A stretch of 64,000 nucleotides of DNA from the NCBI RefSeq assembly GCF_056712565.1, contig NZ_CM160072.1, one strand, 5' to 3'. The translations under genes were made by a program, and so were the position numbers. The notes below the pieces were generated by a model that saw only the letters and a program-made list of their open reading frames with translations, was not told where the DNA came from and did no database searches. This document shows positions 20,302 through 23,509 of the stretch, in pieces (the first letter of the stretch is position 1; each line of letters starts with the position of its first letter).

Positions 20302-21411
20302 TCACTTGGCTGCCGTGGATGAACCGTCGGCATGCCACTGGAAGACACCAAAATCGAATCCCTTAAGATCGCCTTTTTCATCCCAGTTCAGCGGCCCAAT
20401 TACGGTGTTTGCACCGTTAGCTTCTAAATCTTTCACCAGCGCCAGCGGCTCATCGCTGCCGGTACGTTCAAGGGCAGTTGCCAGAGATTGCACCGCCGCG
20501 TAGGTGATCCAGACATAGGGCCCGGACGGATCTTTCTTGTCGGCTTTCAGCGCATCAACGATGCCCTGGTTTGTCGGATCCTGGTCATAGCGTTTTGGCA
20601 TGGTGACCAACATGCCTTCAGCGGCATCACCGGCAATGTTCGACAGCGACGCATTACCGACACCTTCCGGCCCCATAAACTGGGTTTTCAGGCCAACGGA
20701 ACGGGCCTGGCGCAGCATCTGCCCCATTTCCGGGTAGTAACCGCCGTAGTAAACGAAGTCGATGTTTTCTTTTTTCAGGCGGGCGATCAGCGCGGAGAAA
20801 TCTTTCTCTCCAGCGGTAATGCCGTCGAAGAAGACGACGTTGGCGTTAGCCGCTTTCAGCCCGTCCTGCACCGAACGTGCCAGCCCTTCGCCATACTGTT
20901 GTTTGTCGTGAATGATGGCGATGCGCTGGGGCTTCACCGTCTCAAGAATGTATTTTGCCGCCGTTGGCCCCTGGGAAGAGTCCAGCCCGGCAGTACGCAT
21001 GATGTATTGATAACCGCGTTGGGTCAGCTCCGGATTGGTCGCTCCCGGCGAGATCATCAGAATACCTTCGTCTTCATAGATATCTGATGCAGGTTGGGTA
21101 GAGGAGGAACACAGATGACCAATAACATATTTAATGCCGTCGTTAACGATTTTGTTGGCGACCGCAACGGCTTGTTTCGGGTCGCAGGCGTCGTCATATT
21201 CCACGCCAACCAGTTTATCGCCCTTAATTCCCCCTTTGGCATTAATGTCTTTAATTGCCTGACGCGCGCCGTTAAATTCCATATCGCCCCACTGGGCAAT
21301 CGGGCCGGACATCGCGCCGACAACGGCGACTTTAATATCGTCAGCCATAGCGGTGTGTGAAATTGTCAGTGCAATCATCCCTGCGATGATAGTTTTCGCA
21401 TTCCGTTTCAT
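20302..21411 (-). CDS. livK: Leucine-specific periplasmic binding protein
   Basis: Native start [11 protein letters not shown] gives 369 aa with signal peptide; paralogue of livJ. Confidence 0.9.
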
Positions 21412-21834
21412 AGTCAAAAATCCCCATTCGTGATGTTGTGTTGCTTTGTTTTTATGTGTTAACAAATCAGACTGTTCTTTTTTTATACTGCACTGTTTTT
21501 ACCTGTCTGATTAAGGGTTTAGCGCAGTATTTTGTGATGATAGCGATTAAAATCCCTATTTTTCAGTCGATTAAGAACAGATAATATTCTGAATTTATTG
21601 ATAGATAAACAGAAAAAAGTGCCTTTGTCAGCATAAAATAACGGCACAAGGGGCGGAATAATTCACTACCATTCAGGGGATTATGCTGGGTATTTTTCAT
21701 TCTCTAATGTTTTAACTTTGTAATTATTGCTGTTAAAAAATTAATCACCTGCCAAAAGAATTAAAAAAGAGAAAGCCTCCGATTAAATTATTTCGCTACA
21801 CTGGTTCCACTTTTGTGATTTACACGGGTTACCC

Positions 21835-22218
21835 ATGAAGCTGACCATCATTCGATTAGAAAACTTTAGCGACCAGGACCGGATTGACCTGCAAAAGATC
21901 TGGCCGGAGTATTCCCCTTCCTCTTTACAGGTTGACGATAACCACCGTATCTACGCCGCGCGTTTTAACGAGCGCCTTCTCGCGGCCGTGCGGGTAACCT
22001 TAAGCGGCACCGAGGGGGCACTGGATTCCCTGCGTGTGAGGGAAGTCACCCGCCGTCGCGGTGTGGGGCAATATCTGCTGGAAGAGGTTTTGCGTAACAA
22101 TCCTGGCGTTTCATGTTGGTGGATGGCGGATGCTGGCGTGGAAGATCGCGGCGTGATGACGGCGTTTATGCGAGCACTGGGATTTACGGCACAACAGGGT
22201 GGCTGGGAGAAGCGTTAA
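21835..22218 (+). CDS. panM: PanD maturation factor, GNAT-like
   Basis: 127 aa; translation matches PanM/YhhK; sits between livK and livJ. Confidence 0.85.
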   Translation: MKLTIIRLENFSDQDRIDLQKIWPEYSPSSLQVDDNHRIYAARFNERLLAAVRVTLSGTEGALDSLRVREVTRRRGVGQYLLEEVLRNNPGVSCWWMADAGVEDRGVMTAFMRALGFTAQQGGWEKR

Positions 22219-22246
22219 TCGTCAAGTTTGATTTCACAAGTGATAT

Positions 22247-22348
22247 TGCCTGATGCGCTACGCTTATCAGGCCTACAATGTGTGCTGCAATTTACTGATT
22301 TCTTTGAATCTTGTAGGCCGGATAAGGCGTTTACGCCGCATCCGGCAT
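22247..22348. repeat. REP cluster between panM and livJ
   Basis: gcctgatgcgctacgcttatcaggcctaca and inverted copy taggccggataaggcgtttacgccgcatccggca. Confidence 0.75.
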
Positions 22349-22405
22349 GAAGCAACGTACTCGATATTAGCAATTTGGCGGCAACCCAAAGTTGCCGATT
22401 AATGA

Positions 22406-23509
22406 TTACTTCGCATCAGTCGCCGTGCCGTTGGCGTGCCAGTCAAACACACCGAACTCAAAGCCTTTCAGATCGCCTTTCTCATCCCAGGTCAGCGGCC
22501 CCATCACCGTATCAACCGAGTTCGCTTTCAGGTATTTAGCGATCTCCGCCGGATCGTCAGACTGATTCAGGCCCGCTTGCAAAGATTGCAGCGCGGCGTA
22601 GGTGGTCCAGACGAACGCGCCGCTTGGGTCCTGTTTTTTCGCTTTGATCGCGTCAACAATCGGTTTGTTCGCCGGAACCTGATCGTAGTTCTTCGGCTTG
22701 GTCACCAGCAGCCCTTCCGCTGATTCGCCCGCAATGTTAGACAGCGAGACGTTAGCCACGCCTTCTGGCCCCATAAACTGAGTTTTCAGCCCTGCCGCGC
22801 GTGCCTGACGCAGGATTTGCCCCATTTCCGGGTGATAACCGCCGTAGTAAACGAAATCGATATTCTCTTTCTTCAAACGCGCCACCAGGGTAGAGAAATC
22901 TTTTTCCCCGGCGGTGATGCCATCAAAGAACACCACGTTAGCATTGCCTTTCTTCAGGCCGTCCTGCACTGCACGCGCCAGACCTTCGCCGTACTGCTGT
23001 TTGTCGTGAACGATAGCAATGCGTTGCGGTTTCACTTTCTCAAGTATATATTTCGCCGCCGTCGGCCCCTGGTCTGAGTCCAGGCCGGTGGTGCGCAGGA
23101 TCAGCTGATAGCCACGGGCGGTCAGCTCTGGTGCGGTTGCCGCTGGGGTGATCATTAAAATGCCTTCGTCTTCGTAGATGTCAGACGCTGGCTGCGTTGA
23201 TGAAGAGCAGAGGTGACCAATCACGTATTTAATGCCGTCGTTAACGACTTTGTTCGCCACCGCAACCGCCTGTTTCGGGTCACAGGCATCGTCATATTTT
23301 ACGATTTGCAGTTTGTTGCCTTTGATACCACCTTTAGCATTGATATCCGCAACCGCCTGCTCTGCGCCAGTAAACTCCTGGTCACCGTACTGCGCCACCG
23401 GACCGGACATTGCGCCTACGACGGCGACTTTAATATCTTCTGCCAGAGCCATATTGCTGAATGCCAGCGCGATACATCCTGCCAGTAACGCTTTACCCTT
23501 TATGTTCAT
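22406..23509 (-). CDS. livJ: Leu/Ile/Val periplasmic binding protein
   Basis: Native start [11 protein letters not shown] gives 367 aa with signal peptide; matches LivJ. Confidence 0.9.

Follow-up and report, generated by a model that had tools for sequence, protein, structure and literature searches.

The livJ and livK paralogs flanking panM in Escherichia coli: an ancient pair with probable, rare natural exchange

We analyzed a stretch of 64,000 nucleotides (nt), hereafter the window (contig NZ_CM160072.1 of RefSeq assembly GCF_056712565.1), in which livK and livJ, two genes for periplasmic binding proteins in the same orientation, lie on either side of panM. The initial annotation of the window regarded the pair as a direct repeat that could mediate the deletion or duplication of panM and confound the assembly and mapping of short reads. 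We consider it highly probable that livJ and livK of the window are an ancient pair and a poor recombination substrate, and that natural exchange between such genes occurs nevertheless, if rarely. Recombination between livJ and livK appears to be real, at about 1 in 5,000 genomes, the fusions and chimeras being judged from assembled sequences. For the window itself the consequences are small: these are textbook genes, and the pair has remained stable in 99.7% of the finished E. coli genomes.

Divergence of the two copies

The initial annotation's names, coordinates and common orientation for the two genes, their spacing of about 2 kb and their position around panM agree with RefSeq, Pfam and PDB. 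The copies are offset by 2,098 nt over most of their length and by 2,104 nt at the stop-codon end. Their products are highly similar, as had been noted: the peptides quoted as shared occur in both translations, and the identity is 76.6% for the precursors and 78.8% for the mature chains. The similarity of the genes is far beyond chance (blastn, E = 0). When aligned with MAFFT, 802 of the 1,104 ungapped columns are identical (72.6%, a divergence of 27.4%), with a single indel, of 6 nt. Uninterrupted identity reaches 22 nt, the next longest runs being 20, 17 and 16 nt, and the best 120-nt stretch is 82.5% identical. Identity below 70% with no long identical stretches had been named as too low to support homologous recombination, and the pair barely clears this level. 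The two upstream regions could be aligned nowhere but at the Shine-Dalgarno region and in a short run rich in A and T, and a promoter/terminator scan of them gave results no better than shuffled sequence. Because the upstream similarity ceases at the Shine-Dalgarno region, the coding sequence makes up essentially the whole repeat unit.

Identity at the first, second and third codon positions is 82%, 89% and 47%. The proportion of synonymous differences (pS, Nei-Gojobori) is 0.70 and roughly flat along the gene, which corresponds to a synonymous divergence (dS) of about 2, for a nonsynonymous divergence (dN) of 0.16. As a yardstick, distant E. coli alleles of a single gene differ by a dS of 0.17-0.23. 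Since synonymous sites are saturated and third positions match in only 47% of cases, the nucleotide similarity is best read as the residue of protein constraint after an ancient duplication. These values thus indicate that livJ and livK are the products of an ancient duplication whose similarity is maintained by selection on the protein alone.

Across 14 livJ and 14 livK alleles from diverse E. coli strains, the identity between the paralogs ranges from 72.6 to 74.2% and the longest exact run from 22 to 34 nt. The window's allele pair, of B2 type, has the shortest longest run of the 14 pairs, the other lineages having 23-34 nt, and blocks of 26-34 nt are shared by livK and livJ in some of them. 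Similarity is highest in about 110 nt (gene columns 646-754), with 83-88% identity vs 73-74% overall. We then searched these 14 pairs for gene conversion at 289 sites diagnostic of livK or livJ. No conversion tracts were found in them, the longest consecutive run of sites in the state of the paralog being 1-2 of 289; paralog-matching sites are isolated and nearly all at third codon positions. Gene conversion, or concerted evolution, of livJ and livK was ruled out by this lack of tracts and by the pS of 0.70, and the diagnostic sites indicate that the two genes evolve independently. The bacterial paralogs tufA and tufB evolve concertedly. Like them, livJ and livK are duplicates within one genome that code for similar proteins, but they differ from the tuf genes in lacking homogenisation, with saturated dS and no conversion tracts.

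We assessed the effect of the repeat on short reads with error-free reads of 75-250 nt tiled over the two genes, and placement was always correct. The best off-target local score relative to the on-target one was 0.51 for reads of 75 nt and at most 0.27 for reads of 150 nt, which contradicts the expectation that the pair would confound mapping. The genes of the window share two 21-mers and not a single k-mer at k >= 23. The expected trouble with assembly is therefore not found for this allele pair at k >= 23, and holds only indirectly for lineages with blocks of 26-34 nt, in which reciprocal chimeras are seen (see below). Indirect evidence thus points to trouble only where other alleles are assembled at low k and low coverage.

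As a substrate for RecA, the pair has the direct orientation and has produced natural recombinants. Its longest identity, 22 nt, falls just short of the minimal efficient processing segment (MEPS), and its divergence of 27.4% is not low. The minimum for efficient RecA/RecBC recombination is given as 23-27 bp in the part of PMC12074656 that cites Watt et al. 1985. In E. coli, deletions between short direct repeats can also arise without RecA (PMC5426353; PMC12074656, citing Lovett 1993). On general grounds, a divergence of 27% should also provoke a mismatch-repair barrier.

Fusions and a duplication in assembled genomes

We surveyed 5,426 complete E. coli genomes. livK and livJ were each matched in 5,425 of them and panM in 5,424, and the whole livK-panM-livJ block was found in a single place in 5,412 (99.7%). 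One genome gave no match at all, REP sequences included. Only one genome, that of strain EFF60, has lost panM by a fusion of the 5' part of livJ to the 3' part of livK. Two panM places were seen in only 5 complete genomes, one of which is a gene split by IS1, so that duplications by unequal crossover exist in no more than 4 of 5,424 genomes, if in any. A synthetic livK5'/livJ3' query, which cannot detect junctions close to either end of the gene, matched no complete genome above the 89.7% expected for a normal livK. Three other genomes at 90-95% identity to the reverse (livJ5'/livK3') query are probably normal loci with shortened alignments. In 137 genomes megablast reported a second livK place; these were rejected as duplications, each being a livJ allele with a word of 28 nt or more in common with livK (e.g., SCU-101). 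A few complete genomes gave four places with the chimeric queries, which means that livJ and livK are both present twice; the presumed cause is larger segmental or assembly duplication and not unequal exchange between the two genes.

In EFF60 (NZ_CP086678.1, assembly GCF_023373585.1; L003 7979-9065), liv sequence is present, panM is gone and the gene order is rpoH, a 1,087-nt gene annotated as "livK, frameshifted", and livH. When compared with parental-type alleles, this gene is of livJ type at 138 diagnostic sites and of livK type at the 115 that come after them, with one misfit in each series. The change from livJ to livK occurs between columns 676 and 696 of the gene, within ACCCGGAAATGGGGCA(G/A)AT, where 16-19 nt are identical. 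A second lesion, a 23-nt deletion between two 6-nt CGCTGG repeats, causes the frameshift. From its diagnostic sites, EFF60 is exactly the deletion product that the initial annotation had predicted. All other complete E. coli genomes differ from the livJ-derived half by at least 2%, most being only 90-95% identical to it, which marks a rare allele or lineage.

At least four further fusions are held in draft assemblies, with the gene order of EFF60. In L016 (GCA_014888435.2), the fusion is on a 114-kb contig with its junction in a 34-nt block, and its protein (P0016, with sources listed in NCBI and Logan) recurs in another assembly, on a contig of 10-20 kb. The junction of L042 (GCA_022666735.2) lies in a 30-nt block and that of L043 (GCA_902847985.1) in an interval of 5 nt. 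In the fourth, L017 (GCA_026135125.1; contig of 1.02 Mb), livJ column ~894 is joined out of register to livK column ~823, with ~1 nt of microhomology, which adds 24 amino acids (aa). The reciprocal tandem duplication was seen once, in a 198-kb metagenome scaffold (L041, from ERZ28637849) with the order livJ-panM-[K/J]-panM-livK, where K/J is a gene with the 5' part of livK and the 3' part of livJ. This scaffold has an exact 2,106-nt repeat at an offset of 2,098 nt and a junction block of 13 nt. The junctions of the four in-register E. coli fusions (EFF60, L016, L042 and L043) are all within gene columns 646-754. We consider these six events (EFF60, L043, L017, L016, L042 and L041) to be real, since shared k-mers cannot yield them or the assemblies are of isolate grade. 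The repeat-mediated loss or gain of panM put forward by the initial annotation thus has rare natural products (EFF60, four drafts and L041), but it is not a liability of the sequence of the window.

An Enterobacter hormaechei assembly (L044, GCA_052209695.1) encodes a chimera of the N-terminal part of LivJ and the C-terminal part of LivK, with a switch near aa 302-307, directly upstream of livH. There, an aminotransferase gene lies between rpoH and the chimera, and panM is absent. Judging by this protein and gene order, fusions of the livJ/livK type may occur in other genera. A search of the literature for natural livJ-livK fusions found none described.

The mechanism that we envisage is a rare unequal exchange yielding a fusion of the Lepore type, livJ5'::livK3', which would place the livJ promoter before the hybrid gene and livHMGF, with the loss of the 3' part of livJ, of panM and of the 5' part of livK. 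Homologous junctions would fall mainly in the best-conserved ~110 nt, and the remaining events would be microhomology-mediated or illegitimate joins. The mix of junctions (blocks of 30-34 nt and of 5-19 nt, and one out-of-register join) suggests rare homeologous exchange together with slippage or illegitimate joining. Fusion of livJ to livK implies the loss of panM. A delta-yhhK mutant of E. coli, yhhK being another name of panM, is auxotrophic for beta-alanine/pantothenate (PMC3496974), and from the loss of panM the fusion strains would be predicted to have the same auxotrophy. Genuine livJ::livK fusions are thus to be expected now and then in annotation and pangenome work, where they bear the label "livK" and sometimes "frameshifted".

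The Lepore and anti-Lepore fusions of delta/beta-globin and of CYP11B1/CYP11B2 (PMC4041002, PMC8750845) also involve tandem paralogs in the same orientation. Their deletion product is a chimera of the 5' part of the upstream gene and the 3' part of the downstream gene with the interval lost, and the duplication product carries the opposite chimera; in this scheme the deletion product is represented by EFF60, L016, L042 and L043, and the duplication product by L041. The liv pair differs in being 27% diverged vs a few percent, the events being correspondingly rare and in part microhomology-mediated, and in having an interval that holds panM, which is essential in minimal medium. There is also a likeness to recombination limited by short repeats or by the MEPS, both in the liv junction blocks of 5-34 nt and in the 23-nt deletion between CGCTGG repeats of EFF60; however, the liv blocks are not isolated but embedded in ~1.1 kb of 73% homeology.

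Chimeric protein clusters in public assemblies

We searched public assemblies with a synthetic protein made of LivJ residues 1-229 and LivK residues 230-369 (J/K), and with the reciprocal K/J protein. With the J/K query, some 30 clusters matched at 97-99% identity and further ones at 89-96%; the K/J query matched about 40 clusters. Mapping of diagnostic residues identified chimeras with a single switch. The tally of junctions in the 58 E. coli-like chimera clusters, 31 J/K and 27 K/J, is given in Table 1. In 50 of the 58, the junction is in one of the three longest shared blocks (22-34 nt).

Table 1. Position of the junction in the 58 E. coli-like chimera clusters
Junction (aa)	Shared block	J/K	K/J
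239|252	34 nt, columns 721-754	16	6
209|226	30 nt, columns 646-675	10	11
88|121	22-25 nt	0	7
167|180	13 nt	0	3
elsewhere	various blocks	5	0

All the J/K contigs that we inspected have the order rpoH-[chimera]-livHMGF, without panM. The K/J chimeras are almost confined to contigs of about 1.3-2.9 kb from ENA and Logan, and there are no NCBI records among their sources. The inspected K/J contigs carry panM and the chimera at a coverage of 1.5-3x, and four of them are circular with a period of 2,098 nt (2153-55, 2153-55, 2140-42 and exactly 2,098). ERZ1303481, ERZ1755978 and SRR27975574 are examples of metagenome samples in which such circles occur. Logan assemblies use k=31. The 34-nt block, the sole one to exceed 31 nt, is favored over the 30-nt block among Logan chimeras (7 vs 2) and the two are about equal in ENA (17 with the 30-nt and 14 with the 34-nt block), a trend that is not significant (p = 0.13). 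A possible origin is a de Bruijn graph in which the two copies are merged at a block that they share, so that the 2.1-kb loop would be either released as a circle or skipped. In simulations of coverage gaps in graphs of k=21, the chimeric local configuration arose in at most 0.2% of the trials, and full-length chimeric contigs numbered a few per 6,000 trials per setting, with none in most settings. This model yields chimeras too rarely to account alone for the public ones. Most chimeras of low-coverage metagenomes are, from these features, probably assembly artefacts. Two proteins of 568 and 456 aa (P0001 and P0002) join a LivK- or LivJ-like part to a PGM_PMM_I domain (PF02878) and are probably fused open reading frames of frameshifted or chimeric contigs.

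Nothing speaks against the identity of the genes. Several points weigh against our reading of a poor substrate with rare real exchange. Many of the ~58 chimeric clusters are probably artefacts of assembly, and for this reason the clusters cannot be counted as recombination events. The frequency of true recombinants is uncertain, as EFF60 is the sole one from a finished genome. Finally, we infer the respective roles of RecA, of RecA-independent slippage and of mismatch repair.

Could the metagenome chimeras be mostly real, with E. coli populations often carrying both a deletion and a tandem duplication, or an excised 2.1-kb circle? We regard this as unlikely. In its favor, the k=21 coverage-gap model may under-predict the roughly 100 contigs seen, and with L041 there is an assembled duplication that looks real. 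Against it, no duplication by unequal crossover was found in the 5,426 finished genomes, the junctions are confined to blocks at least as long as the usual smallest k, and the reciprocal forms are near-equal in number (31 and 27 clusters) at a very low coverage. The preference of Logan for the 34-nt block points the same way, without reaching significance. Consequently, where metagenomes of low coverage contain LivJ/LivK chimeras or "circular" panM contigs of 2.1 kb, these are probable artefacts of shared blocks of 22-34 nt and should not be taken as new genes or small plasmids.

It is decidedly doubtful that livJ-panM-livK is a recurrent deletion/duplication site of Enterobacteriaceae, at which functional hybrids of altered specificity arise, the loss of panM is favored or tolerated, and the events are selected. 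If this were true, in-frame livJ'-'livK hybrids would be expressed from the livJ promoter together with livHMGF, and the loss of panM that goes with them would give rise to pantothenate-dependent lineages of vitamin-rich host or manure niches.

That all public livJ/livK chimeras are artefacts of assembly or sequencing, with no real recombination, seems very improbable to us. The short K/J contigs at 1.5-3x from ENA and Logan, the four circles with their common period, the lack of K/J chimeras from NCBI and the concentration of junctions in the three longest blocks are all in line with this idea. However, EFF60 is a RefSeq complete genome with a junction block below any usual k and an independent 23-nt deletion, the junctions of L043 (5 nt), L017 (out of register) and L041 (13 nt) are not derivable from shared k-mers, and the L016 protein is found in two assemblies. 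The view that livJ and livK are an active recombination substrate, with recurrent loss and gain of panM and concerted evolution, is hardly tenable: the same orientation at a distance of 2.1 kb, the exact blocks of 26-34 nt in some lineages and the existence of natural fusions are in its favor, but 5,412 of the 5,426 complete genomes keep the block intact and only one shows the deletion, these genomes hold no livK5'/livJ3' fusion with a mid-gene junction and an extra panM in at most 4 cases, synonymous sites are saturated, conversion tracts are lacking and the longest run in the window is only 22 nt.

The locus and its neighbors

The region 20000-24400 of the window is 100% identical to the chromosomes of E. 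coli APEC O1 and of other B2-phylogroup strains. Gene names and coordinates (Table 2) are those of the RefSeq annotation of the identical DNA, converted to positions in the window.

Table 2. Features of the livK-panM-livJ locus in the window
Feature	Position	Strand	Description	Evidence
livK	20302..21411	-	leucine-specific periplasmic binding protein, 369-aa precursor, first of livKHMGF	RefSeq; Pfam PF13458 (195.6 bits); open reading frame
panM (panZ/yhhK)	21835..22218	+	GNAT-fold activator of PanD	RefSeq; Pfam PF12568 PanZ (191 bits)
livJ	22406..23509	-	Leu/Ile/Val periplasmic binding protein, 367-aa precursor, monocistronic	RefSeq; Pfam; PDB
Crossover-prone segment, livK copy	20658..20766	-	gene columns 646-754	
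Crossover-prone segment, livJ copy	22756..22864	-	gene columns 646-754	
Longest exact livK/livJ match	21128..21149; partner 23226-23247		22 nt	alignment
Bacterial interspersed mosaic element (BIME), repetitive extragenic palindromes (REP)	22249..22349		panM-livJ spacer, outside the paralogous repeat	sequence; recurrence; sub-threshold Rfam naRNA4 match

The pair livJ and livK are textbook tandem paralogs that encode the two alternative substrate-binding proteins of the LIV-I/LS system of E. coli, an ABC (ATP-binding cassette) transporter for branched-chain amino acids. The genes themselves, the paralogous relationship between them and the place of panM are already known from the literature. 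LivJ and LivK share the membrane components (livHMGF) and differ in specificity (PMC12708883). The Peripla_BP_6 domain is above the Pfam cut-off of 31.7 bits in both binding proteins (195.6 bits in LivK and 179.1 in LivJ), and the PanZ GNAT domain spans the full length of the panM product. LivJ matches PDB 1Z15/2LIV (E = 1e-229) and LivK matches 1USG/2LBP (E = 3e-183), and by these matches both mature chains begin at residue 24. panM is transcribed opposite to both flanking liv genes. Directly downstream of livK are livH, livM, livG and livF, and ugpB is also downstream.

In E. coli K-12, for which the part of PMC12708883 that draws on Adams et al. 1990 describes livJ and livK (LIV-I, LS), the genes, their order, orientation and neighbors (livHMGF, panM/yhhK and the rpoH side) are the same. 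The K-12 alleles are 96-97.5% identical to those of the window, and nothing essential differs, except that the B2-type window adds an island between livJ and rpoH. This stretch (24444-28753) encodes a mannose-family phosphotransferase system (IIA, IIB, IIC and IID), a dehydrogenase, which is frameshifted in the annotation of APEC O1, and a dapA-like gene. rpoH lies ~270 nt from livJ in K-12-like strains, and the stretch is therefore a strain-specific island.

The spacer between panM and livJ (22219-22405) holds two REP-like palindromes of the BIME, at ~22249-22278 and ~22314-22349, and a 35-nt piece of it recurs ~33 times per E. coli genome. The Rfam scan found nothing beyond the sub-threshold match to the REP-derived naRNA4. 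At this spot, O157:H7 and many other strains carry ataR-ataT, a toxin-antitoxin pair with a GNAT toxin. In one of these loci (L015), ataT overlaps the stop codon of panM by 4 nt, and WP4-S18-ESBL-07 (L005) has a decayed remnant of the pair in the spacer. We also observed insertions in single strains, namely the insertion sequence IS1A between livK and panM in 23CRST042 (L004 7248-7945) and IS200C beside livJ in FDAARGOS_1279.

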